Assembly: GCA_963713865.1 (NCBI GenBank)
Contig: OY970208.1
Coordinates: 928,001 to 992,000, forward strand
Reading direction: 5' to 3'
Source of the DNA: an uncultured candidate division Zixibacteria bacterium
GTDB taxonomy: Bacteria > Zixibacteria > MSB-5A5 > RBG-16-43-9
DNA length: 64,000 nucleotides
The notes under the pieces were generated by a model that was not told where the DNA came from, did not search any database, and was given only the letters and a program-made list of their open reading frames with translations. The stretch's first letter is position 1, and every line of letters starts with the position of its first letter. Position numbers and translations under genes: made by a program. Shown here piece after piece: positions 30,020 to 45,904 of this stretch.

Positions 30020-31774
30020 GTGAAAAGAGTAGTTGTAATCTTGGCGGTGTTGGCACTTAGCCTGGTTTGGATAACCGGCTGCGCTTCAAAACAAAGTAAG
30101 ATAGTCGCACAGATAGGAAAGGATAAAATAACTGTGGGAGGGCTGGCAGGAGATTATATAGAAATGAAGAAAAATGCCCAAATACAAACAATATCCGACC
30201 TTCCTCTATATGACCAGTTTAAAGAATTTTTAGACCAGAGAATCGATAGCCGGCTTCTGGTTCAGGCAGCTTATGAAAAAGGTTTTGATAAAGATCCTCA
30301 AATTGAAGGCCGGCTCGAACCGGAAAAGGAGAAACTTTTGATGAATGAGCTTTTCCGCAGAGAGGTTTTGAGCAAAGTCAAAGTTACCGATAAGGACGTG
30401 GCTGATTTCTATAAAAAATTAGGTGAGAGTATCAAGGTAAGACATATATTGGTAAAGACCAAAAAGGAAGCAGATCAAATCTACCGCGATCTTAAGAAAG
30501 GAGCAGATTTCGATACCCTGGCAAAGGAGAAATCAATCGATACACGAACTAAAGATAAGGGAGGGGACCTGGGTTTCATCAGCTGGCGAGGTATGGCAGG
30601 TGCGGCTTCATTTAAGGAAGTAGCCTTCAAATTAAAGCCCCAGGAGTTCTCCCGCCCGGTCAAGACCCTGGCAGGCTGGCATATAATCAAATTGGATGAA
30701 AGAAAAAAGGAAACCCAGAGAAGCTTTGAGGAAGAAAAGGAAAATCTGAAGACGAGTTTGCAGACGATGAATCAGCAGGAGATCGGGATAAACTATATGG
30801 TCAATTTAATGGAGCAATCCGACCTTAAAATGGTTAGCTCCACTATAAAGATGTTAGAGGAAAAGACCAACGCTTTAGCTGTTACAGATACTCTTAAATC
30901 ACCAATGCAGGGTTTAAACTTAGACCCTGCCCAGCTCACCGAAGAGGAGAAATCCTTAGCAGTTATTAACTATAAGGGTGGAGAGTTAAAGGTATCAGAG
31001 TTCCTTCCCTTCTATAACCGCTGGCCCTCTTTCCAGAGACCAACTTTAAATGATGAGGAAAATATCAAAGGTTTAGTTTTCAATTATCTTTTAGCTCCAG
31101 AGATATTAAAAAAGTTAGCCCTTAAGAAAAAGATCGACCAGAGCAAGGAATATAAGGATAAGCTTACTCGTACCAAAGAGGCGATGATTGCGGATAAATA
31201 CCGGAGTGAGATTATCTGGAAAGATTTAGCTGTAGATTCAGCCGATCTGGAGAATTTCTATCAAATAAATAAGGAGAAATATATTACTCCAGCTCAGGTA
31301 CATGTCTTAGAGATTATGGTCAAAACCGAGGGGGAAGCCAAGCAAGTTCTCAAACAGCTTCGCGCCGGTGCTGATTTCAAAAAGCTGGCTGAGGAGAAAA
31401 CGATCCGGACTTATGCAAAACAAAGCGGAGGAGACCTGGGCAGAATTATGAAAAGCAATTATCCAGAGCTTTTCGATGCAGCCTTCAAGCTCAAGAAGAA
31501 CGAGACCGGAGGTCCTATTCATCTTTTACAGAGTCCGGTGGGTGAAGGATATTCGGTCATAAAGTTATTAGAAAAAACGGAGCAGAAACAGAAAACCTTG
31601 GCAGAGGTAGAACCTATGGTGCGAAACGCAGTTACCTACGAGAAGAAAAATAGCGTTTCTCGAAAGTGGGTGGAGGAGGCTCGTGCGAAAACCGAGATCA
31701 AAATCAACGAACCGGCCCTGCAGGAGGCTTTTGGGATAGTTCAAAAGGAACTTCCACCCCAGGAGAAAATGTGA
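30020..31774 (+). CDS. Parvulin-type peptidyl-prolyl isomerase lipoprotein (two PPIase domains)
   Basis: Lipobox ITGC; RHILV...GADF..LAKEKS...GGDLG twice. Confidence 0.85.
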   Translation: MKRVVVILAVLALSLVWITGCASKQSKIVAQIGKDKITVGGLAGDYIEMKKNAQIQTISDLPLYDQFKEFLDQRIDSRLLVQAAYEKGFDKDPQIEGRLEPEKEKLLMNELFRREVLSKVKVTDKDVADFYKKLGESIKVRHILVKTKKEADQIYRDLKKGADFDTLAKEKSIDTRTKDKGGDLGFISWRGMAGAASFKEVAFKLKPQEFSRPVKTLAGWHIIKLDERKKETQRSFEEEKENLKTSLQTMNQQEIGINYMVNLMEQSDLKMVSSTIKMLEEKTNALAVTDTLKSPMQGLNLDPAQLTEEEKSLAVINYKGGELKVSEFLPFYNRWPSFQRPTLNDEENIKGLVFNYLLAPEILKKLALKKKIDQSKEYKDKLTRTKEAMIADKYRSEIIWKDLAVDSADLENFYQINKEKYITPAQVHVLEIMVKTEGEAKQVLKQLRAGADFKKLAEEKTIRTYAKQSGGDLGRIMKSNYPELFDAAFKLKKNETGGPIHLLQSPVGEGYSVIKLLEKTEQKQKTLAEVEPMVRNAVTYEKKNSVSRKWVEEARAKTEIKINEPALQEAFGIVQKELPPQEKM

Positions 31775-32631
31775 AAAAGGTTACGTTCTTTCTATTATTC
31801 TTATGTCTAATAATTCTTTTAAGCTGTAAGAGCTCAAAGTTAGAGAATAAGGGGAAGGCGCTGGTTGAGGTTAATGGTCAGAAATTAACCGAGGAGGCTA
31901 TAAACGCTGAGCTTTCCTTAGCCTTTGAAGATAGTATCCCCCGGAGGGCAAAACTGGACTATCTGAATCGCTGGATCGAGAATGAACTTTTGTACCAGGA
32001 GGCAAAGAAGAGAGGATTGGATAAAAGCCCGCAGGTGAAAATAAGAATCGAACAGGCAGTCAAGGATGTGCTAGTTCTCAGTTTGTTAAAAGATCAGTCC
32101 ATCAAGCAGATCCAGGTCTCAGAAGAAGAAGCTAAAAAATTTTATGAGCAGAACAGGGACTTTTTCAAAAGGGATCAGGACGAGATCAGAGCAAGCCACA
32201 TCCTTTTTTCCACTCAAGCTCAGGCGGAAAACGCTTTTGACCGGATAAAAAAGGGGGAGGATTTCAAGCTCCTGGCTCAGGAATTGTCCCTTGATTCACA
32301 GACCAGAAATTCAGGAGGAGATATCGGATATTTTGACCTCTCCAGTATGCCTCCGGTTATAGCTAACGTGGTATCTGAACTTCAGATCGGGAAAGTCTCC
32401 GCCCCTTTTAAAACCGAAATGGGTTTTCATATCTTAAAGGTTACAGACAGAAAACCTAAAGGGAGCTTAAGAGAGTTTGCAGAGATCAAAGATAAGCTTA
32501 TAGCTCAGATGAGCGAACAAAAAAAGAGCGAGGCGGTTACCAAACTCTTGGAGGAGTTAAAGAGTAAAGCTAAGATCGAGAAATACGATTGGGCAAAAGA
32601 TACGCTAACCACAGAACAAAAAACCTTTTAA
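31771..32631 (+). CDS. Parvulin-type peptidyl-prolyl isomerase lipoprotein (PrsA-like)
   Basis: GTG start overlapping the upstream stop, AGGAG RBS; lipobox LLSC; RASHIL, GGDIG, GFHILK. Confidence 0.85.
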   Translation: MKKVTFFLLFLCLIILLSCKSSKLENKGKALVEVNGQKLTEEAINAELSLAFEDSIPRRAKLDYLNRWIENELLYQEAKKRGLDKSPQVKIRIEQAVKDVLVLSLLKDQSIKQIQVSEEEAKKFYEQNRDFFKRDQDEIRASHILFSTQAQAENAFDRIKKGEDFKLLAQELSLDSQTRNSGGDIGYFDLSSMPPVIANVVSELQIGKVSAPFKTEMGFHILKVTDRKPKGSLREFAEIKDKLIAQMSEQKKSEAVTKLLEELKSKAKIEKYDWAKDTLTTEQKTF

Positions 32632-32635
32632 GCAG

Positions 32636-33925
32636 ATGAAAACCAGGATAATTTCTCTTCTTGTTATTTTTTATTTACTTTTTTTACCTTCAATTATTTT
32701 TGCTCAGGAGAGCTTAGATCAAATCGTGGCTATAGTGGGCAAAGATATTATCCTGGATTCGGAGCTTAAGACTCAGCTCGAACTCTATCTGGCTCAGACA
32801 GGTAAGAAAACTGAAAATCCTGAGGAATTAAATGACTTAAGAAAAACCCTTTTAGACCAGATGATAAATGATCGTCTCCTGCTGGCTAAAGCGGAGAAGG
32901 ATACTCTCTTGAAGATAAACGACAATGAGATAGAGCAGACCCTGGAAGAGCAGTTAACTAAAATAAAAAGTCAGTTTTCGTCTGAGGAGGCTTTCCAGAA
33001 GGAGTTGAAAACCGAAGGGTTGACTGAGGCAGAGCTTAAAAGAAATTACCGGGAGCAGATCAAAGAGCAGCTTTTAAGAGATAAACTCATCTCCTCTAAG
33101 TTATCCAAGTCTAATATCTCCTCGAGAGAGGTTAAGGAGTTCTATCAGAGCTATAAAGATAGTCTGCCAGAACAACCTGAATCAGCCAAGCTTAGCCAGA
33201 TCCTCTTGAAAATAGAGCCAAGCCAGAAAACTCTGGACTCGCTGAAAGATTTCGCATCTATGATCTTAGCCAGAGCTAAAGCCGGTGAGGATTTCTCAGA
33301 ACTGGCAAAAAGATATTCAGAAGACCCCAGTGCTAAACAGGGCGGGGATTTAGGCTTTTTAAAAAGAGGTGAGATCTTGCCTGAATTTGAAATGAAAGCT
33401 TTTTCCCTTAATCCCGGTGAGATAAGCGATCTGGTTCAGACCTCTCTGGGTTATCATATAATTAAATTGGAAGAGAAAAAAGAAGAGGAGATTCATGTTC
33501 GCCATATTCTGATAAAGATAACACCATCCCAAGTTGATTCTGCAAAGATTTTAAGCCTGGCAGATACGCTTTATCAAAAACTAAAAAGTGGAGCAGATTT
33601 TGTCCAGTTGGTTAAAGACTATTCTCAGGATGATGAATCCAAGAAAAAAGGTGGGGAGATAGGTTGGTTTCCATTAGCCCAGCTTCCAGAAGAGTTAAAA
33701 GAAAAGATCGCTCAAACAGAAATTGGCCAGATAACTTCTCCGGTAATCACAGAGGAAGGTGTGCACATCCTGAAAATCCTGGATAGAAAAGAAAAAAGGG
33801 GGTTGACCCTGGAAGAGGATTACGATACGATTAAAGAGATGGCAAAAAGGAAAAAAGGAAGCGATGAGATTTTGAAATGGATCGAGGAGCTTAAGAGCAA
33901 AACTTATGTAGAGGTGAGGATTTAA
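32636..33925 (+). CDS. surA: SurA-like chaperone / PPIase
   Basis: DQIVAIVGKDIILDSE SurA N-domain followed by two parvulin domains. Confidence 0.8.
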   Translation: MKTRIISLLVIFYLLFLPSIIFAQESLDQIVAIVGKDIILDSELKTQLELYLAQTGKKTENPEELNDLRKTLLDQMINDRLLLAKAEKDTLLKINDNEIEQTLEEQLTKIKSQFSSEEAFQKELKTEGLTEAELKRNYREQIKEQLLRDKLISSKLSKSNISSREVKEFYQSYKDSLPEQPESAKLSQILLKIEPSQKTLDSLKDFASMILARAKAGEDFSELAKRYSEDPSAKQGGDLGFLKRGEILPEFEMKAFSLNPGEISDLVQTSLGYHIIKLEEKKEEEIHVRHILIKITPSQVDSAKILSLADTLYQKLKSGADFVQLVKDYSQDDESKKKGGEIGWFPLAQLPEELKEKIAQTEIGQITSPVITEEGVHILKILDRKEKRGLTLEEDYDTIKEMAKRKKGSDEILKWIEELKSKTYVEVRI

Positions 33926-33932
33926 ACCTGAA

Positions 33933-34208
33933 TTGCGTTTAGACCAATTCCTTTCCATATCCCGGCTTTTAAAGAGAAGGACTCAGGCAAAATTAGCCTG
34001 CGATAAAGGGCTGGTATATGTAGATGGGATTAAAGCCAAACCAGGCAAAGAAGTTAAGGTGGGGCAGAAGATTATCTTAGATTTTACTAACAGGAAAATT
34101 GAATTAGAGGTATTAAAACTCCCTCCCAAAAGTTTAAGAAAAGAGGAAACAAAGGAGTTATACCGTATCATCTCAGAAGAAAAGAAAAATGACAGTCTTT
34201 TCGAATAA
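33933..34208 (+). CDS. S4 RNA-binding protein (Hsp15/YabO-like)
   Basis: MRLDQFL...KRRTQAKLACDKG...KPGKEVKVG. Confidence 0.85.
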   Translation: MRLDQFLSISRLLKRRTQAKLACDKGLVYVDGIKAKPGKEVKVGQKIILDFTNRKIELEVLKLPPKSLRKEETKELYRIISEEKKNDSLFE

Positions 34209-34276
34209 CCCGATAGATCCACCCTGTCATCAATGAGGATTAATTCTTTATCTTGACCTTTTGTCTCAAATCACTT

Positions 34277-34306
34277 AGGGGTGGAGATTATCTCCACCCC
34301 TTTCTT
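34277..34306 (+). terminator. Hairpin/terminator between convergent operons
   Basis: AGGGGTGGAGA-TTA-TCTCCACCCCT followed by TTCTT. Confidence 0.65.
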
Positions 34307-34349
34307 ATTATAGTTAGATTTCTTTACTGTTTTGGAGATATTATCTTTT

Positions 34350-36440
34350 TCAAGAACAACTCCAGCAATCTGTATTACAAGTTGGAGCTGGACCTCCTTT
34401 GAAAAGATAGTTGATTAGCCAAACTACATCCGCCACACTTACATTACAATCGCCATTGGTATCCCCCTTCCATAAAGGCTCAAATCCAGGACCTAACTTA
34501 AAGAGATAATTTATCAGGTAAACTATATCTGCAAGCGATACTTTACCATCACAATTAACATCTCCGGAAACCGGGAGTATTATATGATGCTGGGCAAAAA
34601 TCTTTATCAAATGCTCTTTCTCCCAGTCTTCCAGTCCAGGATAGCTCTGCCAGTAGTTCATAAACTCAATCATATTCTGAGGTTTATTGGTTTTAAAGAT
34701 ATCAAAAATCTTTGCAAATTCATCATGTAATTCATAATATTCTGTATTACTACGTTCGTTTGGATAATCAATATTTGCATCCTCCATATCATACCAGGCA
34801 CTTGCCACTGCTCCTTCTACTATAGAGCCATCAACATTTTTCCCATCAGGTCCTGCCCACCAATCGTTGTTTTCAAGGTCCCAACCATTATCCTTTAAAT
34901 ATCTGGCTTTATCTCCTGTTATAACACAACTTAAATATTCAGCCCACCCCTCATCAAAGGCACAGGAGGGGGTGGAGGTGGTATTAAAAGAATGGATAAG
35001 GGGACATCCCATGGTATGCATTGAGTTGAGATTCCAGGCTTTTACCTGGATAAGATGGGCATATTCATGAATCGGAGCATATAATCTATACCCAAAATTA
35101 GGGGGACCCATACTTGTTAGATACATCCAGTATATCTGATACAGGGAATCATATGCGCTATATGCAAGACCGTTTATATTGTTGTAATCATACATGACCA
35201 GAACAGGAGGGGTGTCCCAGGGGTAAGGGGGGACTGTTTGGATTAAATATTTTGTTTCTTGTAGATAGTGATAGCTATAACAAGCTCTAGCGAACATAGT
35301 ATCTTGCTCTTCACGAGATTGCTCGTCTTTTACTAAATTAAAGGAGTTATCAGGTCCTAAAGTGTCAGTAGAGGTACATATCAGAGAGTCATTACCCCAG
35401 ATTTTAACAGCCAACGAGTTATCCTGGTTAACTAAATGGAATTTCACATAAATAGGATGCTCTACGCGGGGGAGAAAAGTCACGAAATACCCGGATCTAT
35501 CTGTATATAGAGATTCTGTAGCAAATAAGTAACCTGTTACTCCATCCCAGATTGAGACTAGAACATTTGGTAGGGAAACTATCTGAGGATAATAAGAATA
35601 GTCGGCATATTGGTCATCATAGTTCACATATTTCAATTCTCCTGAAACACAAACATCCTCACAATAGGAAGACATGGCACCAGCCAGGGGCCAGGATGGT
35701 TTGCTTATGGCTCCATACATAGATACTAACCTCATCCGGATGTAATAATAATCCACGCACTTCAACCAGTTAAGTGTTTTGGAAGTGTAGTCGCAGTCCA
35801 GGACTGAAGCCTCTCCTTCTATTATATTGTCATCATTCAATAAATCTGCGTTCCTGTTCCATTCTATCTTGTAACTTACACATTGAGTGTCAAAAACCGG
35901 GGTCCAGCTCACATCAATCTCTCTTTGACCTGTGCCAGTGTTTGCCCATACATATGCAGGCGGGTCTGGTGGAACATGATAACGCACCTTCAATGTCCAG
36001 GTATCCAGCGTGCCAGTTATACCTTGATCACAATCACTTATCTTCAACTTCCAATTCGCATTTGCCTTTAAACCAAAAAAGCTCCAGTCTTCAGTCTTAG
36101 AAAAGGTGGAGCCATGCACGCTCCCATAACTCCATAAAACCTCATAGTGCATTGTGTCATCATCATATTGCAATACCACCACTAAATCCCTGGACCAATT
36201 ATGTGAGACTGCAAAATAAATATCTATTGAAAGAACTATAGCCTCATCTGGAGCAAGAGTATTATTATAGCTCTCAACCTCATCTCCACATTCATTTTCT
36301 CCCGTACCATCTGGAATATATAAATAAGGTGAGCTGGTTACAGTAGTCGAGTCTTCATAGGCCTCAGCTAACTCATACCTGAAGAAAGGCAGGATAAAAA
36401 ATAAAAGCAGAAAAACCCTTAAATAAGCTTTAATATTCAC
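34350..36440 (-). CDS. Secreted gluzincin metalloprotease: P-domain + FN3-like + HExxH domain + dockerin-like domain
   Basis: Signal peptide; HNWSRDLVVVL...NWKLKISDCDQGITGTLDTWTL (proprotein-convertase P-domain); HEYAH...FDEGWAE; GDVNCDGKVSLADIVYLINYLF duplicated. GTG start overlaps the upstream stop. Confidence 0.8.
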   Translation of the reverse strand: MNIKAYLRVFLLLFFILPFFRYELAEAYEDSTTVTSSPYLYIPDGTGENECGDEVESYNNTLAPDEAIVLSIDIYFAVSHNWSRDLVVVLQYDDDTMHYEVLWSYGSVHGSTFSKTEDWSFFGLKANANWKLKISDCDQGITGTLDTWTLKVRYHVPPDPPAYVWANTGTGQREIDVSWTPVFDTQCVSYKIEWNRNADLLNDDNIIEGEASVLDCDYTSKTLNWLKCVDYYYIRMRLVSMYGAISKPSWPLAGAMSSYCEDVCVSGELKYVNYDDQYADYSYYPQIVSLPNVLVSIWDGVTGYLFATESLYTDRSGYFVTFLPRVEHPIYVKFHLVNQDNSLAVKIWGNDSLICTSTDTLGPDNSFNLVKDEQSREEQDTMFARACYSYHYLQETKYLIQTVPPYPWDTPPVLVMYDYNNINGLAYSAYDSLYQIYWMYLTSMGPPNFGYRLYAPIHEYAHLIQVKAWNLNSMHTMGCPLIHSFNTTSTPSCAFDEGWAEYLSCVITGDKARYLKDNGWDLENNDWWAGPDGKNVDGSIVEGAVASAWYDMEDANIDYPNERSNTEYYELHDEFAKIFDIFKTNKPQNMIEFMNYWQSYPGLEDWEKEHLIKIFAQHHIILPVSGDVNCDGKVSLADIVYLINYLFKLGPGFEPLWKGDTNGDCNVSVADVVWLINYLFKGGPAPTCNTDCWSCS

Positions 36441-37942
36441 CAACTGTCACCCCTTTCTTCTTAAAATATTTAAAGAAGATTTTAGATTCTTTTTGAGTTC
36501 TAACTATATATAATAATTTACCATCTTTATCCAAATGATACCGAGCAAGGAATCTATCATTCTTTGGCTTAACCCCCTCTCTTGGCGGCTCCTCAATACC
36601 AAGAGCAAAGCTATTCGCACCTAACCTTGGAGGCACTACCTTGAAAGAACCCTCCAGGGTGTCGCCTTTGGTAATCGGTCCGGGTAGCATTTTAAAGCTA
36701 ATTTTACCATCACGAGTTACTATTTTCATCCCATCTGGATAATAATCCTTGGTTATAACCCGGTAATAAACCGTTGAAGTATCATTTAAAGAAAGAGGCG
36801 GAGTTATATGAAATAGATTGGTTACATACTGACCATTGAATTTTACATAAATCTCCCTATCAGTTATAAGAGGATGGAAAGGTAAATCGCTTTCTGGGAA
36901 ACCACCTCTATTTGAAAGGTGAACCAGCTCTCCGTTCTCATCAAAACCAAAGTAGAAACAGGGTTCTACTGTTTCCAATTGAATACATATTCCATGCCTC
37001 CCTATTTCCCTGGGTACTATAGTGATACTTCCTTCATAAATATCACCTTTCTTAATGGGACGATGCCATTTAGGCTCAAGTTCTGTAAAATCCATATTTT
37101 CTTCACTGGCATGTACTATAAAACGAGGGTCTTGGTTATAAGGGGGTTGTTGAGCTTCTTCAGGTCTTATATCCCAGTTCCAGCAGGATTTTAATTTTAC
37201 ATAAATCTTAGAGGGTTTATTCAATTCTGGTAAAGGTTCAAACCTAATCTGCCAAGCAAAAGAAGCCCTTCCATCACAGGAATCCAAAGGTTGACCCCAT
37301 CTATATTCAAAAACCTGTCTTATCTCCTGTTTGGGTTCCTCATGTGTTGTATCTACACCCGGTGGTAGAGATGGCTTTGGCCATTTCTTAGTAATTATAT
37401 CTTTAGCTGTCTTACCATCAGAAAAGATCGTCCCAGGTAAAAAATAATATCCTACAAGAATAACTACCAATAAAATACTTAAACCCAAACCTAATCTTTT
37501 CTTGTTGTTCATAAATATTCCTCCTTAAACTCTTAAATAAGTTTTAATATTCACCAACTGTCACCCCTTTCTTCTTATAATATTCATAGAAGATTTTAGA
37601 TTCTTTTTGAGTTTTAACTATATATAATAATCTACCATCTTTATCTAAATGATAGAGAGCAATGAATCTATCATTCTTTGGCTTAACTCCCTCTCTTGGC
37701 GGCTCCTCAATATCAAGAGCAAAACCATTCGCACCTGACCTTGAAGGCACTACCTTAAAAGAGCCCTCCAGGGTATCGCCCTTGGTAATCGGGCCGGGTA
37801 ACATCTTAAAGCTAATTTTACCATCACGAGTTACTATTTTCATCCCATCTGGATAATAATCTTTGGTTATAACCCGGTAATAAACCGTTGAAGTATCGTT
37901 CAAAGAAAGAGGTGGAGTTATATGAAAAAGATTGGTAACGTA
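36414..37942. repeat. Direct repeat of about 415 bp from tandem gene duplication (36414-36828 vs 37528-37942; offset 1114)
   Basis: Near-identical DNA across the 3' halves of the two paralogs, extending a few codons into the downstream gene start. Confidence 0.85.
36430..37512 (-). CDS. Membrane-anchored/exported protein with two internal beta-sandwich-like repeats (paralog A)
   Basis: N-terminal TM segment; internal repeat KGDIYEGSITIVP...FDENGEL / KGDTLEGSFKVVP...LDKDGKL. Confidence 0.75.
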   Translation of the reverse strand: MNNKKRLGLGLSILLVVILVGYYFLPGTIFSDGKTAKDIITKKWPKPSLPPGVDTTHEEPKQEIRQVFEYRWGQPLDSCDGRASFAWQIRFEPLPELNKPSKIYVKLKSCWNWDIRPEEAQQPPYNQDPRFIVHASEENMDFTELEPKWHRPIKKGDIYEGSITIVPREIGRHGICIQLETVEPCFYFGFDENGELVHLSNRGGFPESDLPFHPLITDREIYVKFNGQYVTNLFHITPPLSLNDTSTVYYRVITKDYYPDGMKIVTRDGKISFKMLPGPITKGDTLEGSFKVVPPRLGANSFALGIEEPPREGVKPKNDRFLARYHLDKDGKLLYIVRTQKESKIFFKYFKKKGVTVGEY

Positions 37943-38617
37943 AGTTCCACCAAATTTTACGTAAATCTCATTCTCAGTTATAGCTGGATGGTTAGGTAAA
38001 TCATTCTTTGGGAAAATACCTCTATCTGAGAGATGAACTAGTTCCCCCTTTTCATTAAAACCAAAATTTAAGAAGGTCTCAAACCTTCCTCCTATTATGT
38101 GTAATCTGTATTTACCAATCTCTCTCGGTACAATGGCGATTGTTCCATCATAGATTTCACCCTTTTTAATAGGATATAGCCACCTGGGTTCAACAAATGG
38201 AGTATAGTCCAGAGCATTTTCATCAGAAGATACTCTAAAGAGAGGACCCTCGTTATAAATGGGATGAGATCCAACACCACTGGTCTTCATTTCCCAGCAG
38301 GATTTTAACTTCACATAAATATTGGATGGTTTATTTACCTGGGGTAAAGGGTCAAACTTTATCTGCCATAAATAGGAGTCCCATCCATCACATGAGTCCA
38401 CAGGCAGATCCCATTTATACTCAAAAACCTGTTTTATCTCTTGCTTGGGTGGCTCGTTTTTAGTTTTTGGTATATTTAATTTTTTTATTTTCTTATATAC
38501 CTCATCAACGGCTGGCTGCCCATTAGTAAAAACAAAGTTAGGCAAATACCAGAAAAACCCAAGCAAAATTACCAGCAAAACACTTAGGCTTAAACCTAAT
38601 CTTTTCTTGTTATTCAT
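37544..38617 (-). CDS. Paralog B of 36430..37512
   Basis: Same MNNKKRLGL start (GGAGG RBS fits ATG 38617); last 132 aa differ from paralog A at 11 positions. Confidence 0.8.
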   Translation of the reverse strand: MNNKKRLGLSLSVLLVILLGFFWYLPNFVFTNGQPAVDEVYKKIKKLNIPKTKNEPPKQEIKQVFEYKWDLPVDSCDGWDSYLWQIKFDPLPQVNKPSNIYVKLKSCWEMKTSGVGSHPIYNEGPLFRVSSDENALDYTPFVEPRWLYPIKKGEIYDGTIAIVPREIGKYRLHIIGGRFETFLNFGFNEKGELVHLSDRGIFPKNDLPNHPAITENEIYVKFGGTYVTNLFHITPPLSLNDTSTVYYRVITKDYYPDGMKIVTRDGKISFKMLPGPITKGDTLEGSFKVVPSRSGANGFALDIEEPPREGVKPKNDRFIALYHLDKDGRLLYIVKTQKESKIFYEYYKKKGVTVGEY

Positions 38618-38638
38618 AACCATTCCTCCTTTACTCCT

Positions 38639-39562
38639 CTATTTTTTCTGAGGTGTTTCTTTGTCTATAGATTTAAGTTTGCCTTGTTCGTCCAGATTAA
38701 AGATAACCTTAAAATCCTTTTTTCCAAAAGAAATTTTATCAAGTTCGGGTGCTTGCTCTACCTGTAGAATAAAATAACCATCTCCGGTCTTTGTAGGTAT
38801 AATCTGGAAATAACTTTTATAGTGATAAACCGAACCTATGGTATCTGAAGCTCTATCTGGTAGTTCTATTATATCCAATCCATCAGAACCGATTAGAGAA
38901 ATCTTCAAATCCTGCGGAATCTCATCCTTTATTACAATATGATACAAGACCAGAGAGGTATCATTTAAAGAAGGGGGAGGGTTTATCCTGAAACTGTTGG
39001 TAAAGCTGGCTTCTTCAAATTTTAATATAATCGCATTATTTTCAGGGATGGATTTTCTTCCCTGAAGAGAGACTAACTTCCCGGATTCATCAAAACTGAA
39101 AAAGACATGAAAAACCGATTCAGTCTTCTCTGCGCAGGCGGAACTGGTGTTAATTTTAATCCCGATTACATAATCACCGGGCTTTTCTGCTTTAAAACTG
39201 AATTTACCCTCATAAATATCTCCCTTCTTAACTGGAGGATTCCACCCTGGCTCTATTTCGCTACATTCAAAGGCTCCTGTTACATCCCCTTTATGATAGG
39301 CTCTCAAAATACTTATTACTGGCGTCTGATAGCAGAACTGGTGTGCTTGTAATTTAAGAATAACGGTTGTGGTTTTACCTAATTCAGGTAAAGATTCAAA
39401 GGTTATCAAAGCTGAATAAGGGTAAAGCTTAATCTCATCTTCGTTAAACTGAAGTCCCCATTGATAATTAATCGTATGTTCGATATTTTCTTCTCCATTA
39501 AGCAAGTTAGAAGAAAATAGCCATAGGTTAATCGTTAATAACATAAATCCATATTTAAACAT
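38639..39562 (-). CDS. Diverged paralog C of the same exported family
   Basis: YQWG, FESLPELGK, KKGDIYEG, FDESGKLV, PPPSLNDTS, LDEQGKL align with paralogs A and B; signal peptide; GGAGGTG RBS best fits ATG 39562. Confidence 0.75.
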   Translation of the reverse strand: MFKYGFMLLTINLWLFSSNLLNGEENIEHTINYQWGLQFNEDEIKLYPYSALITFESLPELGKTTTVILKLQAHQFCYQTPVISILRAYHKGDVTGAFECSEIEPGWNPPVKKGDIYEGKFSFKAEKPGDYVIGIKINTSSACAEKTESVFHVFFSFDESGKLVSLQGRKSIPENNAIILKFEEASFTNSFRINPPPSLNDTSLVLYHIVIKDEIPQDLKISLIGSDGLDIIELPDRASDTIGSVYHYKSYFQIIPTKTGDGYFILQVEQAPELDKISFGKKDFKVIFNLDEQGKLKSIDKETPQKK

Positions 39563-39627
39563 TTTCATGTCACCTCCAGATTAATCTTTCCCAATCTTGA
39601 ACTTTTAAGCATACTTTCTTTTCTTCC

Positions 39628-39656
39628 TCCGCCCGGGCCCACGTTACCCGGGCGGA
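39628..39656. other. GC-rich hairpin in the operon leader
   Basis: TCCGCCCGGG-9nt-CCCGGGCGGA perfect 10-bp stem in an AT-rich context. Confidence 0.7.
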
Positions 39657-39709
39657 TGATTGGAACTACAAGAAAGAAGTAAAAGAGGTAAAAACCTGCT
39701 AAGGTGTGT

Positions 39710-39725
39710 ATCAAAAAATATGCCA
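39710..39725 (-). promoter_or_regulatory. Putative sigma54 (-24/-12) promoter
   Basis: Minus strand TGGCATATTTTTTGAT = GG-N10-GA versus consensus TGGCAC-N5-TTGC; directly downstream of a sigma54 activator gene. Confidence 0.65.
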
Positions 39726-39833
39726 GCTTAATAAAAACATCGCTCTCTCGATACTAACTCTTTGTGTATAAAAAAGATGGGGTGAAAAGAATTGGAAATC
39801 TCAGATGTAAAAATATGGAGAATAAAAAAATCT

Positions 39834-39938
39834 ATTTCAAGTATGAAATGACTAATTAATAAAAATTCAGATAATGTGTTGTTTAAATTAGACTTATGAG
39901 TATTTCAAGAATGAAATGGGATTTTGCAGAAATGAAAT
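39834..39938. promoter_or_regulatory. Putative enhancer (UAS) palindromes ATTTCA-N4-TGAAAT
   Basis: Perfect at 39834-39849 and 39902-39917, degenerate TTTGCA-GAAA-TGAAAT at 39923-39938. Confidence 0.65.
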
Positions 39939-39939
39939 A

Positions 39940-42309
39940 CTAAAGGGGGATATTATAAAACTTTATCTTCCGGCATAAAGTTGCCTCAGAGATTCCTAAA
40001 AACTCAGATGCTAATTTCCGATTACCGTTATATTTTTTCAGAGTGTCTATAATCTCTTTCTTCTCCAGCTCCTGTATTTTACTATTTAATGTTAGTGATT
40101 GGTTGTCTGGTTCATTGTGATATTTATTTGAAGTTTCTAAAAACTTCTTTTCAGGGAAAAGCACAATACTTTTTACTTCATTCTCTAACTCCCTTATATT
40201 CCCGGGCCAATCATATTCCTGGAGCTTTTCTATTAGTTTCGGATATCCTAAAAGCTTCAGGTTATCCTCAGCTATTCCAGTTTCCTTCAGAAAATACACT
40301 ATCAACAACGGTATATCCTCTTTCCTCTCCCTCAAAGGCTGGAGTTTTAAGTTGAACGTATTAAGCCGAAAATAGAGGTCTTTTCTGAAGAATTCTTTTG
40401 AGACTCTCTCCATAAGATTACGGGAAGTGGAAACGATAATCCTTACATCTATCTTTTTAGGCTTGGTCTCACCTATCCGGGTAATCTCTTTATCCTCAAT
40501 TGCCCTTAGTAATTTTACCTGAGTGGATAAAGGTATCTCTGCTACCTCATCTATATACAAAGTCCCGCCAGCCGCCTCCTCAAATAACCCTACACTGCTC
40601 TCGTCAGCACCGGTATAAGCTCCTTTAATATGTCCGAAGAGTGCATTCTCTAACAAGGTCTCTGGAACCGTAGAACATTGAGCTACTACAAACTTCTTAT
40701 CTTTTCTTTTACTCTCATAATGAATACATTTCGCTAACAAATCTTTTCCTGTGCCAGTCTCTCCCTCTATTAGAATGGTCATATCTGTATCTTTTATCCT
40801 CTTTGCTTCTTCTAGTATATCCAGCATCTTTCTATTCCGGGTGATGATATTAGAAAAGGTATATTTCTTTTGTGAATCAGGTACCCCAAGCTCCCCGCTA
40901 AACTTTGTTAGCTTATTTCTAAACTCCCTAACCAGACTCAAATCTCTTTCCTCTTTTAATTCAAAAAATACCTTTTCCGCATCTTTTAGATAAAGACCCG
41001 CACTCACATATTCCTGCTTCTCGAAAAATAGATTAAATTGGGCTAATTTGATTAATCCAAGATGGTATTTCGATTCTAAATTTTTGAAGATGTCCTCAGC
41101 CAGTCCCAAATACATTATCCGCTCATAATAATCATAACAGTCAGATCTTCCTGCTTCTAAATAGGTTTTGGCTAATTCATATTTAGCGTTTATCTCTTGA
41201 AAGATATTCAGACTCCTGTTGAAATACTCCTGAGCTTTTTCCTTATCACCTCTAAATGTATAAATCTGCCCAAGAATACGATAACAGGCAGACTCCTCAA
41301 CTCTTTCTCCTAAAGATTTACTAACCCTTAGAGCTTTTTGACAAGAGCTAAATGCCTGGTCGTATTCTTTCTTAGTTACCTGCAAATCTGCCAGGAGACG
41401 ATAAGTCTGGCTTATCATATCCCCTTCTGGGGCTCTTTCATCCATTATCTCAAAGACTTTTTTATAATGATTTTCTGCAGATTGATGGTCTCCCTGAATA
41501 AAAGCTAATTCACCAGAGTACTCATGATAAATTGATAGCTCACGCACACAGTTGTTCTTCTGAATCAGAGATAAAGATTCTTCATAGAATTTTTTTGCTT
41601 TTGAAAACTCTCTTTTCAGAAAATATACGTAACCCAAGGAGAGCAAACCCCTGCTTAGATTGAGTTCATCTTTTGCCTGTCGATTCAATCCTATGTTTAA
41701 AAGTAAACTCCTCTCTGCCTTTTTCCAGTTACCTATCTTTAAAAACATCTGACCTAAATTACCATATAAAAAAGCTTTTTTTTCTGGCTGTCCTGCTTTA
41801 TCAACAAAACTAAGAGCATCTTGAAGATATTCTATAGATTTAGAATAACTTCCCTTAATGTATTCAACATTAGAAAGCCGACTAAGACAATTAATGACCC
41901 CTTTTAAATCATTAATTCTTCTATAACCAGTTGAGGCGTCCCTTATCTCTGTCTCTGCAGATTTAAGATTGCCAAGAGCTATATAAATTAAGCCCAGGAG
42001 GAACTGAGCCTGGGATATTTTTAAATCATTATGTAGTTCAATGAATATGGAAATAGCTCTTTTACCTGTTTCCAATGCCTCCTCATAACTCCCGAAATGT
42101 CGTAAAACTTTAGCCGCAGAATAATAAAACTGCCCCATCTCTTCTGTAAATGGTTCTTCTGGCAATGCAAAAGAACCTAACTTTCCCGTGCTCTGAACCT
42201 CCCTGATCTGAGCTAAGGCTGTTATATAATCATTATCCTCAATCAGCTTTTCTATTTCCTCAAGCTGATGAGTTAAATCCACCTTTGAGTTCTGGAAATT
42301 ATCTTTCAT
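39940..42309 (-). CDS. TPR-repeat sigma54-dependent transcriptional activator (TPR + AAA+ + Fis-type HTH)
   Basis: About 470 aa of TPR-like helical repeats; GETGTGKD, LFGHIKGAYTGA, LYIDEV, FRKDLYFRL, WPGNIRELEN; HTH NRKLASEFLGISEATLCRK. Confidence 0.92.
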   Translation of the reverse strand: MKDNFQNSKVDLTHQLEEIEKLIEDNDYITALAQIREVQSTGKLGSFALPEEPFTEEMGQFYYSAAKVLRHFGSYEEALETGKRAISIFIELHNDLKISQAQFLLGLIYIALGNLKSAETEIRDASTGYRRINDLKGVINCLSRLSNVEYIKGSYSKSIEYLQDALSFVDKAGQPEKKAFLYGNLGQMFLKIGNWKKAERSLLLNIGLNRQAKDELNLSRGLLSLGYVYFLKREFSKAKKFYEESLSLIQKNNCVRELSIYHEYSGELAFIQGDHQSAENHYKKVFEIMDERAPEGDMISQTYRLLADLQVTKKEYDQAFSSCQKALRVSKSLGERVEESACYRILGQIYTFRGDKEKAQEYFNRSLNIFQEINAKYELAKTYLEAGRSDCYDYYERIMYLGLAEDIFKNLESKYHLGLIKLAQFNLFFEKQEYVSAGLYLKDAEKVFFELKEERDLSLVREFRNKLTKFSGELGVPDSQKKYTFSNIITRNRKMLDILEEAKRIKDTDMTILIEGETGTGKDLLAKCIHYESKRKDKKFVVAQCSTVPETLLENALFGHIKGAYTGADESSVGLFEEAAGGTLYIDEVAEIPLSTQVKLLRAIEDKEITRIGETKPKKIDVRIIVSTSRNLMERVSKEFFRKDLYFRLNTFNLKLQPLRERKEDIPLLIVYFLKETGIAEDNLKLLGYPKLIEKLQEYDWPGNIRELENEVKSIVLFPEKKFLETSNKYHNEPDNQSLTLNSKIQELEKKEIIDTLKKYNGNRKLASEFLGISEATLCRKIKFYNIPL

Positions 42310-42607
42310 CTTGTTTTTTAACTAAGTTAGTAGAATTTTTCACTGGTTCTTCTGTTTTAAGTTGCGCCTGATTTGATGATTTATCAATAATTATCAGTGC
42401 TGGAAGATTTTGAGTATTTGTAATAAGGAGGAATTTTATTATTGAAGGAGAATTATCAATAGTTTGCGGAGTAACAGGTACTTTCTCACAATCTTGCCAT
42501 GGATCTCCATAAAGTTTAGCTCTTCTTGCATCCACTGCCCAGGTAGAGGTGATAAAAAACAAAAGAAGCAACCCCAACAAAAGCCCTAAAATAAGTCTCT
42601 TTTTCAT
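42299..42607 (-). CDS. Small secreted protein / putative pro-peptide, coupled to the activator
   Basis: MKKR + Leu-rich core + TWA|V signal cleavage; AAGGAG RBS; overlaps the activator start by 11 nt. Confidence 0.75.
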   Translation of the reverse strand: MKKRLILGLLLGLLLLFFITSTWAVDARRAKLYGDPWQDCEKVPVTPQTIDNSPSIIKFLLITNTQNLPALIIIDKSSNQAQLKTEEPVKNSTNLVKKQDER

Positions 42608-42660
42608 TGTTTTCTCCTTTCAGGTAAGTAATTAAACAAATCTAAGGTTATTACGGACTT

Positions 42661-42688
42661 AAAATAAGATATAAAAAGGATTTGTCAA
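42661..42688 (-). promoter_or_regulatory. Putative sigma70 promoter for the peptide-activator pair
   Basis: TTGACA (42683-88)-N16-TATTTT on the minus strand. Confidence 0.5.
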
Positions 42689-42796
42689 GGGGAAAATTAA
42701 AATTTTATGATATTTATGGTTAAAATTGAATAAAGGGTGTTAGAATGGTCAGGATATTATACTTTTAGATATTAGACCTGATAGTAAATATATTTT

Positions 42797-44203
42797 TTAT
42801 TCAGATTCTTCCCTTATCCTTATGTTATATTTTCTCATCAGGGCTTGAAAGTTAGTTCTCTGCATACTGACCTCTTTAGCTGAGCGGGTGACGTTCCAGT
42901 CATTCCGGTTCAAGGCTTCAAGGATGAACATCTTCTCAATATTCTCCACTGCGCTTTCCCGGAGATACTTTTTCATCGTTTTCAGCTCTTCGGAGTTTTT
43001 CGGGATTTGGGTATCCATTCCTGCACCCTGTCCCAAAATAGTAGCTGGAAGGTACTCTGAGATAATGGTTTTACTTTCAGCCATTACTACTGCTCTTTCT
43101 ATCACATTTTCCAATTGTCTGACATTTCCGGGCCATTCATAATTTATGAGCTTGTTCATAGCCTCTACGGAGATACTCTTGATCTCCTTATTCATTTCCT
43201 GATTGAACTTCTTGAGAAAATGATAAGCCAAAATCGGGATATCATCTTTTCTTACCCTTAAAGGGGGTATAGTAATTGAAACCACATTCAACCTGTAATA
43301 AAGGTCTTCTCTGAACTTCTTTTCATTGACCAAGTTCTCCAGATTCTTATTAGTAGCCACGATAAACCGTAAATCTACCTTTTTGGGCTGAATCCCTCCT
43401 ACTGGCAGAAACTCCTGTTCCTGGATAACTCTTAAGAGCTTCCCCTGGATAATCGGATTAATATCCCCGATCTCATCCAAAAATACCGAGCCCCCGTCTG
43501 CTACTTCAAAAAGACCCGGTTTAGTAACTACCGCCCCGGTGAACGAGCCTTTGATATGACCGAAAAGCTCGCTTTCTAAAAGGTCCTGGGATAACACCCC
43601 ACAATCTACCGTGAAAAAGGGTTTGTTTTTTCTTTGACTGTTAAAATGAATAGCCCTGGCAATTAACTCTTTGCCGGTTCCACTCTCACCGCAGATCAAT
43701 ACGGTGCTATCAGTCGGGGCAACCTTGCGAATGAATTTGAAAACCTCCTGTATTTTAGGGCTATTACCTACGATATTTTCAAAGGAATATTTAGCCTCTA
43801 ATTCTTTATGCAGGTAGATATTTTCAAAAATCAGTTTTTTTTTCTCCAGAGCTTTCTCCACCACCACGATCAGTTCTTCCGGGGTGAAAGGTTTCGGGAT
43901 ATAGTCTAAGGCACCCATCTTCATTGCCTGGACCGCAGTCTGGACAGTGGAATATCCGGTGATTATAATTACGATTATCTCCGGGTCCTTCTCCTTTATC
44001 TTGGTTAAAAGCTCCATCCCATCCATACCTGGCATCTTCAGATCAGTAATCACTATATCGAAAGATTCCTGATTGAGCTTTTCTAAAGCCTCTTCTCCGG
44101 AAAGAGCGATTCCTACCTCATAACCCTCAGGTGAAAGTATTCTCTGGACGCTTTTACAGATCACTACCTCATCATCCACTACCAGGATATTACCTTTTGC
44201 CAT
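42797..44203 (-). CDS. NtrC-family sigma54 response regulator
   Basis: REC (VVDDE, TDLKMPGMDG, KPF), GESGTGKE, ESELFGHIKGSFTGA, WPGNVRQLEN, HTH. Confidence 0.93.
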   Translation of the reverse strand: MAKGNILVVDDEVVICKSVQRILSPEGYEVGIALSGEEALEKLNQESFDIVITDLKMPGMDGMELLTKIKEKDPEIIVIIITGYSTVQTAVQAMKMGALDYIPKPFTPEELIVVVEKALEKKKLIFENIYLHKELEAKYSFENIVGNSPKIQEVFKFIRKVAPTDSTVLICGESGTGKELIARAIHFNSQRKNKPFFTVDCGVLSQDLLESELFGHIKGSFTGAVVTKPGLFEVADGGSVFLDEIGDINPIIQGKLLRVIQEQEFLPVGGIQPKKVDLRFIVATNKNLENLVNEKKFREDLYYRLNVVSITIPPLRVRKDDIPILAYHFLKKFNQEMNKEIKSISVEAMNKLINYEWPGNVRQLENVIERAVVMAESKTIISEYLPATILGQGAGMDTQIPKNSEELKTMKKYLRESAVENIEKMFILEALNRNDWNVTRSAKEVSMQRTNFQALMRKYNIRIREESE

Positions 44204-44235
44204 CTTCTATTTTAATCTCCTTAATTAAGACTTTA

Positions 44236-45795
44236 TTATTCTAAAGGCAATTTAACTGTAAAGGTCGAGCCTTTTCCTAACTGGCTTTTTACTTCTAAGT
44301 ATCCGTTATGTCGTTGAATTATCCCGTAACTTACCGATAGACCTAAACCAGTTCCCCTTCCAGACCTTTTGGTAGTAAAGAAGGGGTCAAAGATCTTGGG
44401 TAAGTTCTCCTCGGAGATTCCTGAACCGGTGTCCGTGAAGCTTATCTTTACAAACTTCTTCTCAGGATCGAAATCTGATCCTATGGTCAGAGTACCACCC
44501 TGAGACATAGCCTCAGCTGCATTTAAGATTATATTCACAAATACCTGTTTTATCTGGTCAACATCCATCATCACTGCAGGCAGATTTTCATTTAGCTTTT
44601 TTTCAACGCTTATATTAAGGAAAAGCGCTTGATTTTCCAGCAGAGAAAGGGTCTCCTCCACCACTTTATTTATATCTGCACGGGTTTTACTTGGCTCAGT
44701 CTGCCGTGCAAATTCTAAAAGACCTTTCACGATTTTCCTGCAGCGGGTGGTTTCGCTAACTATCACCTCTAAATCCTCTTTCATCTGCGGATTCTCTTTA
44801 TGTTCTTTCAAAAGCAGAGAGCTGTAAGTCAAAATACCCGTCAGGGGGTTATTTATCTCATGAGCAATCCCGGCCGCCAACTTACCTAAGGAAGCTAATT
44901 TTTCAGACTGGATTAGTTGCTCCTGGGTTTTCTTGAGCTCCTTTGTCTTTTCCTCCACCCTTTTCTCTAAAACCCGGCTCCATTCTTCTAATTCCTCTTG
45001 AGCTCCGGATAAATCCTTGGTCATCCGGTTGAAAGAGTTTGCCAGCTCACCGATCTCATCTTTAGAATCTATTTTCAAAGTATATTCTAAATCCCCGGAA
45101 GCAATCTTCTTGGTCTCATCCACTAAGGCTCTAACCGGACGGCTAACCGACCGCTTAACAAACATGGCGATAGTTCCAGAAATACCTAAAAATAGCACTA
45201 CTGCAAAAGCTAACATTTTGTTCTGATTTCCCTTTATCTGGTGATCTACGTCTGCTAAGGACATCCCGATATCTAAAACCCCTAAGACCTTTTGAGTAGA
45301 AGGATGAGCATGGCAGTCTGCAGTATAACAATCCTTTTCATTATAGATAGGATTTATCATCCCCAGGACCCGGTGTCCCTCTTTAGATTTATAGATCCGA
45401 TTCCTCTCCGGAGTAGGGAGTTTTTCCAGAGGTTTTTCAGCCGAATGGCAGGCATAACAGGCTTCAGCCTTTTTATCCACCATCGAGCCGATATCCTTTT
45501 TATCCGTGGAGAACATTATCTCTCCCTCTTTATTAAAAATCCTGATCTTCTCAATCCCTTCCTGTTCTCCTATGGTTTCGATGATCTTATGCACTGCCTC
45601 GCTCTCATATTTTAACATATCATAGCGCGTGCTTCTTTTAACCGTTTCGCTTATGCGGTTAGCACTCCGCAGAACCTCACTCGTCAACTGCCCTTTCTGA
45701 GAATTTATGCTCACATAAGCGAATATCCCCAGAGCTATAATTAGAATAGACCCCACAAATAAGATTAGTTTAAACCCTAAGCGATTATACCACAT
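44236..45795 (-). CDS. Sensor histidine kinase with periplasmic heme-c-like motifs and HAMP domain
   Basis: 2 TM; CYACH and CYTADCH; DEIGELANSFN; AHEINNPL; GTGLGL. Start probably ATG 45795. Confidence 0.9.
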   Translation of the reverse strand: MWYNRLGFKLILFVGSILIIALGIFAYVSINSQKGQLTSEVLRSANRISETVKRSTRYDMLKYESEAVHKIIETIGEQEGIEKIRIFNKEGEIMFSTDKKDIGSMVDKKAEACYACHSAEKPLEKLPTPERNRIYKSKEGHRVLGMINPIYNEKDCYTADCHAHPSTQKVLGVLDIGMSLADVDHQIKGNQNKMLAFAVVLFLGISGTIAMFVKRSVSRPVRALVDETKKIASGDLEYTLKIDSKDEIGELANSFNRMTKDLSGAQEELEEWSRVLEKRVEEKTKELKKTQEQLIQSEKLASLGKLAAGIAHEINNPLTGILTYSSLLLKEHKENPQMKEDLEVIVSETTRCRKIVKGLLEFARQTEPSKTRADINKVVEETLSLLENQALFLNISVEKKLNENLPAVMMDVDQIKQVFVNIILNAAEAMSQGGTLTIGSDFDPEKKFVKISFTDTGSGISEENLPKIFDPFFTTKRSGRGTGLGLSVSYGIIQRHNGYLEVKSQLGKGSTFTVKLPLE

Positions 45796-45904
45796 ACAAA
45801 AAAACTCCACAAGTTAAGCATTAATATAAAATCTCAGGAGTAAAATGTCAAATCTTTAACCTGAAAGATTATACTGGAATAAAAAAGATATATTTGTTTT
45901 GTTT

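Follow-up and report, generated by a model that had tools for sequence, protein, structure and literature searches.

Organization of the locus

The stretch of DNA considered here, hereafter the window, comprises 64,000 nucleotides (nt) of contig OY970208.1 (positions 928,001 to 992,000) of an uncultured candidate division Zixibacteria bacterium, whose 2.72-Mb genome is represented by a single contig and is 94% complete. It carries a cassette in which the gene of a small protein with a signal peptide is followed by the gene of a sigma-54 activator with an N-terminal tetratricopeptide repeat (TPR) module, and then by two palindromes, a sigma-54 promoter with a structured leader and a four-gene operon, all on the minus strand (Table 1). 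Taken together, the small protein and the activator look like a signal and its receptor that control exported proteins.

The small gene has a Shine-Dalgarno sequence AGGAG 7 nt upstream, and its stop overlaps the activator ATG (42309) by 11 nt; this overlap, first noticed when the DNA was read without database searches (the sequence-only reading), is borne out by the open reading frame (ORF) listing and the sequence. After the activator stop there is an intergenic region of 371 nt (39939..39569), and the four genes beyond it encode proteins of 309, 359, 360 and 697 amino acids (aa), which are separated by gaps of 15 and 31 nt and one overlap of 14 nt and each of which begins with a hydrophobic N-terminus. 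The same reading had described palindromes, a -24/-12 promoter and an operon of this kind downstream of the activator, and this layout was found as described and is positionally conserved in relatives.

The activator

In Pfam the N-terminal part of the activator is matched by several TPR models (TPR_12, E 4.8e-38; TPR_MalT PF17874, E 9.2e-20; and others) over approximately residues 58-390, and the remainder by Sigma54_activat (PF00158, residues 488-654, E 1.3e-62), AAA_lid_14 (residues 660-726) and the helix-turn-helix (HTH) model HTH_8 (residues 746-783, E 1.1e-9). The sequence contains a Walker A motif GETGTGK and a GAYTGA loop, while no receiver, GAF, PAS or kinase domain was found by Pfam in the window activator, which agrees with the earlier description of an N-terminal module made of TPRs alone and followed by AAA+ and HTH domains. 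The module spans about 470 aa with approximately 11-12 repeats and is modelled as a superhelix of 24 helices at a predicted local distance difference test (pLDDT) of 92.8. The host genome also encodes rpoN (E 1.5e-55) and about 18 sigma-54 activators. The protein is a true sigma-54 enhancer-binding protein (EBP) with an undescribed input module and partner.

No curated family specific to the TPR part exists in Pfam or NCBIfam, and all NCBIfam equivalogs for EBPs score under their cut-off for this activator. The relatives named by NCBI are annotated as "sigma 54-interacting transcriptional regulator" or "tetratricopeptide repeat protein", and all of them belong to Zixibacteria. Intact members of the family are 735-991 aa long and can be divided into a short class of 735-825 aa (TPR-AAA+-HTH) and a long class of 941-991 aa, in which a GAF domain is placed between the TPR and AAA+ parts.

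The host genome contains a second module (G000:C1:1206285-1210640, loci L002/L089), where the small protein reads ...VLEHPWEEVK and the activator is split into a 502-aa TPR ORF and a 465-aa AAA+ ORF, which in relatives form one TPR-GAF-AAA+ protein of about 960 aa; the split may reflect a frameshift, a pseudogene or an error of assembly. The closest activator ortholog with a named handle, at L010/L031 (G005:C121), is 68% identical to the window protein and contains one in-frame TAG.

The small, presumably exported protein

The small protein of the window begins with MKKRLILGLLLGLLLLFFITSTWA|VD (the core ends TWA|VD), which is followed by ...YGDPWQDCEK. Residues 1-24 are a predicted signal peptide, and residues 35-39 (nt 42491-42505) read D-P-W-Q-D. 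Residues from about 55 to 75 make up a hydrophobic hairpin-like segment, and the tail is rich in K and E. In the family the motif is followed by a linker rich in P, G, S and D, then by about 15-22 residues of hydrophobic or amphipathic character, and last by a basic tail. In the family alignment (A1), where the mean column identity is 18%, P36 is invariant and W37 and P47 are present in at least 90% of the rows, while the last 30 residues, which adjoin the activator start, are not conserved in sequence.

The conserved motif can be written as [E/G]-[H/D]-P-W-[Q/E/D/G]-[D/E/H], and in most families outside the order of the window organism it starts 0-3 residues past the predicted cleavage site. 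Signal peptides were called by a heuristic (basic n-region, hydrophobic core, small residues at -3/-1) together with inspection by eye; by these means a Sec-like N-terminus was recognized at all 83 evaluable loci described below, including two which the heuristic missed and which on inspection read ...VVWAGEHPWDGD (L086) and ...VLSGSGDEDPWDAD (L110).

The small protein has no Pfam or NCBIfam family match. A profile search with A1 in 1.84 billion proteins gave 178 representative clusters at E<=0.001, the 150 listed of which are 52-195 aa long, and in a collection of 5.8 billion proteins there were 59 clusters of small proteins, all "hypothetical protein" without Pfam domains, whose NCBI-named members are Zixibacteria. 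No fusion of the small protein to a longer protein was found in a search of longer proteins, which is weak evidence. Two tandem copies of the small gene precede a single activator at L103 (G169:C24; 119 and 124 aa) and at L049 (G019:C151; 131 and 115 aa), and L049 has two complete modules in tandem as well.

Linkage of the pair across the phylum

The sequence-only reading had set a test beforehand: a small signal-peptide gene should consistently precede TPR-sigma-54 homologs, and its product should keep a short core, for example xPW[Q/E]. In the sample at order and class level the TPR region was searched in 41 related genomes, 60 wide loci were fetched and 61 activator genes were located; a second sample comprised 23 loci from eleven other families, of which 22 were evaluable, since L118 is without upstream DNA. 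A small ORF stood ahead of the activator at 61/61 loci of the first sample and at 22/22 of the second, hence at all 83 evaluable loci within one phylum, so that this part of the test came out in favour of the prediction. The paired ORFs are 85-131 aa long, lie on the same strand as the activator, have a Sec-like N-terminus and end between about -150 and +120 nt of the activator start, with translational coupling or near-coupling of the two genes at the loci examined. The core of the predicted kind (xPW[Q/E/D]) was likewise retained, with its Trp present at 76/83 loci; the Trp-less forms are RPEQD at L032, HP[D/E]QE at L033-L037 and GPFD at L112.

In a phylum-wide search the activator family was detected in 220 of 251 sampled genomes (E<=1e-25), with up to 7 copies per genome (G012), while it was not found in the families f5, f6, f11 and f18. 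A wider search of contigs with a single TPR sequence returned an unrelated Prevotellaceae TPR match and nothing else. To each subfamily of small proteins belong an activator subfamily, a palindrome and a cargo of its own, which is what separate channels would lead one to expect. The window ortholog was not found in the two genomes of the same genus, where the best match is 39% identical, and the window cassette is therefore accessory.

Enhancer palindromes, promoter and leader

The 18-mer palindrome CATTTCATWCTTGAAATA occurs in the whole host genome in two copies only, at <=2 mismatches, and both lie in the intergenic region past the activator stop, 108-208 bp upstream of the promoter. In each subfamily 2-3 palindromes of its own are found directly past the activator stop (examples in Table 1). 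Sites for sigma-54 were called when they agreed at 9/11 or more with TGGCAC-N5-TTGCW, GG and TG being fixed, and on this basis 21 of the 45 loci of the short class have such a site at +185..+270 past the activator stop, compared with 0.009 expected per locus, and none of the 32 long-class loci has one there. Five loci of one subfamily (L041, L042, L044, L049 and L050) have a strong sigma-54 site of the TGGCGCAGTTTTTGCA type about 430 nt upstream of the activator start, before the small gene, which suggests autoregulation. At L057 (G016:C26) the sigma-54-like 16-mer TGGCAGGGCTTTTGAA appears three times, at +209, +408 and +606 past the activator stop; the period of about 199 nt suggests that the promoter region may have been repeated in tandem.

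Between the promoter and the first operon gene lies a conserved leader, which has no Rfam family match, as was also the case for the intergenic region as a whole. A CU-rich box (consensus TTGGTTTTTACCTCCTTC), a GC-rich hairpin and a purine-rich tract are common to the window and 18 related leaders, and the leader was seen in the window, L030, L031, L032, L034-L040, L043, L045, L046 and L111. In the window the hairpin has a perfect 9-bp GC stem and is unique in the genome, so that a genome-wide repeat of REP type is rejected for it; near matches to the leader box elsewhere in the host genome fall inside coding sequence. The 151-nt leader of the window folds at -50.3 kcal/mol (fold z = -3.93). 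The RNAalifold consensus contains 13 pairs, 9 with compensatory changes, and 88.7% of the alignment cells are paired, as compared with 73.8 +/- 1.6% in shuffled alignments (0/500 reach the observed value) and <=54.7% when the partners are slid. Since G-U pairs on the sense strand are frequent, the structure points to a function as RNA and not as DNA. The leader folds of several relatives show a CU box complementary to the first cistron's Shine-Dalgarno sequence, so that translational control is suggested, and the leader may sequester the ribosome-binding site of this cistron.

Two further observations concern the leader. A second leader box with hairpin is present in the same locus kilobases past the activator stop at L030 (+4608), L031 (+4778), L037 (+3812) and L038 (+5144), and judging from this arrangement one activator may drive two promoter-leader units there. 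An identical mini-ORF of 8 codons (ATG ATT GAT TTC CCA AGT GGG TTT ATC TAA) with its own Shine-Dalgarno sequence follows the hairpin and precedes the first cargo gene in the leaders of L030 and L032, which are two paralogous cassettes of one genome.

Products of the downstream genes

The first three operon genes are paralogs without a Pfam or NCBIfam family match. The 309-aa protein is modelled, at a low confidence (pLDDT 61.8), as an N-terminal helix followed by all-beta domains, and the C-terminal halves of the 360-aa and 359-aa proteins are nearly identical. For the 697-aa protein, a protein-atlas search gave no match above 0.76 and a sequence search of the PDB returned dockerins only; the dockerin is also all that it has in common with the S8 peptidases of orthologous cassettes. 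A metalloprotease identity was considered for this protein and is not claimed, its sole basis being the HEYAH...EGWAEY string. The label of a secreted protease set, given to the operon from the sequence alone, was therefore not verified: three of the genes have no family match, and the fourth has the dockerin and HEYAH and nothing more.

In G003 and G005, which contain orthologs of the window cassette, the cargo consists of CarboxypepD_reg lipoproteins and S8-dockerin peptidases. Other subfamilies have an M16 peptidase, a protein with FlgD_ig and a type IX secretion system (T9SS) tail, an outer-membrane barrel, a PD40 protein, a radical SAM enzyme, and further signal-peptide proteins without an assigned family. 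Where the cargo can be recognised it is exported, as in the S8-dockerin peptidases, the M16 peptidase, the T9SS-tail protein and the outer-membrane barrel. In one subfamily the downstream genes are convergent, and the small gene and the activator stand alone.

Possible recognition of the small protein by the TPR array

The best look-alikes of the TPR model found in the PDB by Foldseek are TSK/BRU1 with H3.1, LGN/Pins with Inscuteable, NuMA or Frmpd, APPBP2 with its degron, OGT and APC subunits, all of them solenoids holding extended peptides and the first three being receptors of such peptides; designed consensus TPRs (CTPR) are also among the top matches. In TPR solenoids the first helices of the repeats line the concave groove. 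The nearly invariant polar residues of the TPR alignment (A2), namely Q102, N184, S224, R256, Y261, E263, Y264, Q301 and R304, lie mostly in the first helix of repeats and would probably face this groove.

Docking of the small protein on the TPR array had been proposed as a check of the pair. Complex prediction with the TPR region and the small protein scored 0.40, 0.39 and 0.46 against 0.00 for three controls, with a partner pLDDT of 38-44 and a contact agreement between runs of at least 47%; the verdict of the procedure was "weak support". The mark applied is reached by 58/80 solved complexes and 2/110 mismatched pairs, these rates being approximate because custom alignments were used, and among those reaching it at a score <=0.60 there are only 7/80 solved complexes and both of the passing mismatched pairs.

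A possible coupling between the partners concerns one site. Position 143 in the third TPR repeat is Asn in most pairs and Ser in all six Trp-less pairs of L032 and L033-L037, which represent two independent losses of the Trp. This apparent coupling of Ser143 with loss of the Trp is suggestive, not decisive.

Proposed mechanism and alternative explanations

A self-contained signalling cassette of a cognate pair, in which the small protein is exported, processed, taken up and bound by the TPR array, was ranked first among the explanations considered and is put forward tentatively. Export, processing and uptake, direct binding by the TPR array and the sign of the regulation are what we infer from the arrangement described above. 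Translational coupling would yield the small protein along with the activator, probably under a constitutive promoter of sigma-70 type, and the small protein would be exported by Sec, so that removal of the signal peptide would expose the sequence [E/G]-[H/D]-P-W-[Q/E/D]-[D/E] at or near the new N-terminus. Proteolysis in the envelope or outside the cell would then release a fragment bearing the motif, which would return to the cytoplasm, most plausibly via a transporter of the OPT family, and would be held in the concave groove of the TPR superhelix. Binding of the fragment would alter how the AAA+ domain assembles or hydrolyses ATP, and the activator, seated on the two palindromes past its own stop, would open the sigma-54 promoter 215 nt downstream and drive the four-gene operon via the structured leader. 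The many diverged pairs with their own palindromes and cargos argue for separate signals, the exported cargo fits a logic of proteolysis or public goods, and the host genome encodes one OPT-family transporter and a CstA.

Several observations weigh against such a peptide route. No OppA-type binding protein (PF00496) was matched in the host genome, while the control search finds it in 11/14 named genomes, and hence the canonical import route of the RRNPP systems is absent; no PTR2 transporter was found in this genome either. Export by Sec in a diderm cell ends in the periplasm, and no route across the outer membrane was identified for the small protein. No RRNPP receptor (Rap, NprR, PlcR or Rgg) appears among the PDB fold matches listed, to rank 50, and with some 11-12 repeats the array far exceeds what a short peptide needs. 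The small proteins are long (85-131 aa), and a mere propeptide would need neither their hydrophobic or amphipathic segment nor their basic tail, both of which are retained. The tight translational coupling suggests a stoichiometric protein partner, and together with the length and architecture of the small protein and the very large TPR array it fits a partner that is captured before export. Ser143 is also found with the Trp kept, in the window, L046, L067 and L105. The correlation of pairwise identities between the small protein and the activator is r 0.69 for the TPR part and r 0.68 for the AAA+ part, so that the TPR is not singled out. Finally, the -12 element of the window promoter is TTGA and not TTGC, that is, a variant.

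The second-ranked explanation, which appears unlikely, is a functional link without contact, where the small protein is part of the envelope, for example an anchor or chaperone of the cargo whose motif is read outside the cytoplasm, and the TPR array senses another ligand, for instance a protein of the host, a foreign peptide that has been imported or a metabolite. The predicted extracytoplasmic position of the mature motif, the frequent dockerin or T9SS-type tails of the exported cargo, the weakness of the complex prediction and a mirror-tree correlation without TPR-specific coupling would all be in line with it. What speaks against it is that the small gene is paired with the activator gene and not with the cargo, which varies among subfamilies while the small gene stays, that the pair occurs alone in the subfamily with convergent downstream genes, and that both losses of the Trp coincide with Ser at TPR position 143.

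Ranked third, and improbable as matters stand, is a partner switch coupled to secretion, in which the TPR array captures the full-length small protein before its export, the two being made 1:1 from one mRNA, and Sec export frees or silences the activator without any re-import. A protein of about 100 aa completes its translation soon after the signal peptide emerges, and a cytosolic pre-protein state is therefore expected. The coupling or near-coupling of the genes at the loci examined, the conserved architecture past the motif, the resemblance of the large superhelix to receptors that wrap segments of 30-40 residues and the lack of an OppA-type importer in the genome are also in its favour. 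However, Sec is constitutive, which makes the sensed cue unclear, up to 7 diverged pairs per genome would be superfluous if every one of them signalled the status of Sec, and the finding of no small protein-activator fusion among longer proteins counts weakly against it.

A monitoring leader like SecM, VemP or MifM, where the export status of the small ORF would control activator translation by ribosome stalling, would be in keeping with a signal-peptide ORF that has a conserved Trp motif, lies upstream of the regulated gene and overlaps it, but it is very unlikely. Known arrest peptides act near the downstream ribosome-binding site. Here the motif (residues 35-39 of 102) is some 65 codons away from the stop and distant from the junction, and the last 30 residues, which adjoin the activator start, show no sequence conservation.

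If the signalling cassette of a cognate pair is extended to the phylum, it would mean that Zixibacteria run peptide signalling of RRNPP logic via sigma-54 EBPs, with up to 7 orthogonal channels per genome, each consisting of an exported Trp-acidic pro-protein that is processed extracytoplasmically and re-imported, its own TPR receptor and a cassette in cis for exported enzymes; this extended form is regarded as doubtful.

Comparison with known systems

The sequence-only reading had likened the cassette to the RRNPP receptors and had not recognised it as a described system. The second statement was confirmed insofar as no curated Pfam, NCBIfam or Rfam family matches specifically the TPR part, the leader or the small protein and no description of a TPR-type EBP with a small exported partner was found in the full-text literature, including passages of PMC12316311. 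The first holds for the logic only, since the TPR receptor and the direct gene neighbourhood agree, while receptor size, fold neighbours and Opp import do not. In the RRNPP(A) systems of Bacillota (Rap-Phr, NprR-NprX, PlcR-PapR, PrgX, AimR-AimP) a small gene with a Sec signal adjoins a cytoplasmic TPR regulator, as does a gene with a predicted Sec signal here, and as here there are many diverged paralogous pairs, and exported enzymes are among the cargo. According to PMC10075063, the RRNPP signature comprises a Sec-secreted propeptide of 10-100 aa and a receptor of about 250-500 aa with TPRs, encoded by direct neighbours; on this account four of the five signature features are present or nearly present here, if the predicted Sec signal is counted. 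With 102 aa in the window and 85-131 aa across the family, the small protein reaches or exceeds the upper limit of the propeptide, a Sec-like N-terminus is predicted at 83/83 loci, TPRs are evident from both the TPR_12 match and the superhelical model, and the genes are neighbours at 83/83 loci. The receptor is too long, with 789 aa in the window and 735-991 aa in the family, the Opp re-import route has no counterpart in the host genome with its one OPT transporter, and the receptor fold is missing among the PDB matches listed, to rank 50. In addition, RRNPP receptors have an HTH or phosphatase output and Bacillota hosts, whereas here the output is an AAA+ sigma-54 domain, sometimes with GAF, in a diderm phylum. 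The system thus follows an RRNPP-like logic but is not an RRNPP member, as it differs in receptor size, fold neighbours and importer.

With the known EBPs (NifA/NorR with GAF, XylR/DmpR with V4R, PspF-PspA, NifA-NifL) the activator shares the AAA+ sigma-54 domain with Walker A and a GAFTGA-type loop (here GAYTGA), a Fis-type HTH (HTH_8) with upstream palindromic enhancers (here two of 18 bp) and a -24/-12 promoter (here with the variant -12) in a host that encodes rpoN, and its long-class paralogs also have GAF; it differs in the N-terminal 470-aa TPR superhelix and in the small signal-peptide partner. The regulators of MalT type, STAND proteins with TPR/SUPR sensors, are similar in that a TPR sensor controls an ATPase-driven activator, in line with the TPR_MalT match, but they are STAND NTPases which work with sigma-70 and respond to maltotriose, while here a sigma-54 AAA+ domain follows the TPR part.

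The kinesin light chain offers a parallel for the mode of binding: according to PMC6214655 its TPRs bind a Trp flanked by acidic residues, as in SKIP TNLEWDDSAI, where a disordered Trp-Asp/Glu motif enters the concave groove of a TPR_12-type solenoid and relieves autoinhibition. This likeness is one of mechanism only, as the eukaryotic protein is unrelated by descent and binding here is hypothetical. FlgM with sigma-28 and the type III chaperones IpgC/SicA with MxiE/InvF are comparable in having an exported partner encoded beside a cytoplasmic regulator, and the TPR chaperones bind their substrate before export and turn into co-activators after it has left, in the manner of the secretion-coupled partner switch considered above; these systems depend on dedicated secretion machines whose completion is the signal, while here ordinary Sec-type signal peptides are present. 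In SecM, VemP and MifM the arrest motif lies near the stop, a position which the motif of the small protein does not share and where its tail is not conserved.

Known controls of sigma-54 activators are phosphorylation, small ligands and anti-activator proteins, and the pairing of a TPR-sigma-54 activator with an exported Trp-acidic protein throughout a phylum would give EBPs a new class of input. To our knowledge, cytoplasmic TPR receptors for genetically encoded secreted peptides come almost only from Bacillota and their mobile elements; if the peptide route is true, peptide signalling would extend to an uncultured diderm phylum. The cassette, made of two genes, two palindromes, one promoter and one leader, is compact, and its palindromes are specific to each paralog. 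It can therefore be tested directly in a heterologous host, and for the same reasons the cassettes could be reused as a set of orthogonal switches.

Feature coordinates and flanking genes

Table 1. Features of the cassette in the window, from the 5' end of the minus strand onwards, with palindromes of four related loci
Feature	Position	Strand	Remarks
Candidate sigma-70-like promoter, TTGACA-16-TATTTT	42661..42688	-	best-scoring match (10/12) in 34000-43000; directly 5' of the small gene
Small gene, 102 aa, product predicted to be exported	42299..42607	-	ORF listing and sequence
TPR-AAA+-HTH sigma-54 EBP, 789 aa	39940..42309	-	Pfam
Activator, TPR domain	40870-42309	-	Pfam
Activator, AAA+ domain	40348-40848	-	Pfam
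Activator, HTH_8 domain	39961-40074	-	Pfam
Enhancer palindrome 1, CATTTCATTCTTGAAATA	39901..39918	-	sequence; genome motif search
Enhancer palindrome 2, CATTTCATACTTGAAATA	39833..39850	-	sequence; genome motif search
Sigma-54 -24/-12 promoter, TGGCATATTTTTTGAT (TGGCAT-N5-TTGAT)	39710..39725	-	215 nt past the activator stop
Conserved 5' leader	39593..39702	-	CU-rich box GGTTTTTACCTCTTTTAC (39679-39696), GC-rich hairpin (39629-39655), purine-rich tract
Operon gene 1, 309 aa, all-beta, family unassigned	38639..39568	-	hydrophobic N-terminus
Operon gene 2, 359-aa paralog	37544..38623	-	30% identical to the 309-aa protein
Operon gene 3, 360-aa paralog	36430..37512	-	34% identical to the 309-aa protein
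Operon gene 4, 697-aa protein, predicted to be exported	34350..36443	-	C-terminal type I dockerin (E 9.5e-10), HEYAH...EGWAEY string
Terminator-like palindromic hairpin at the operon end	34277-34301	not assigned (.)	sequence
Palindrome L030, TCACCA-N5-TGGTGA	directly past activator stop		
Palindrome L032, TCTCTCA-N5-GAGA	directly past activator stop		
Palindrome L035, ATCCTCC-N6-GGAGGAT	directly past activator stop		
Palindrome L043, CTACCA-N5-TGGTAG	directly past activator stop		

The sigma-70-like site ahead of the small gene is to be taken as a candidate only, because the total of such matches in 34000-43000 is not above that of shuffled sequences (25 found, 27.1 expected). Directly upstream of the small gene, at 42797-45810 (-), the window encodes a Cache/HAMP histidine kinase and an NtrC-type response regulator with a GSFTGA loop; receiver-domain genes also occur upstream of some related loci, though not consistently. 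At the other side two adjoining SurA/PpiC-like ORFs with hydrophobic N-termini, read by eye, are located at 31666-33925 (+), convergent to the operon end.

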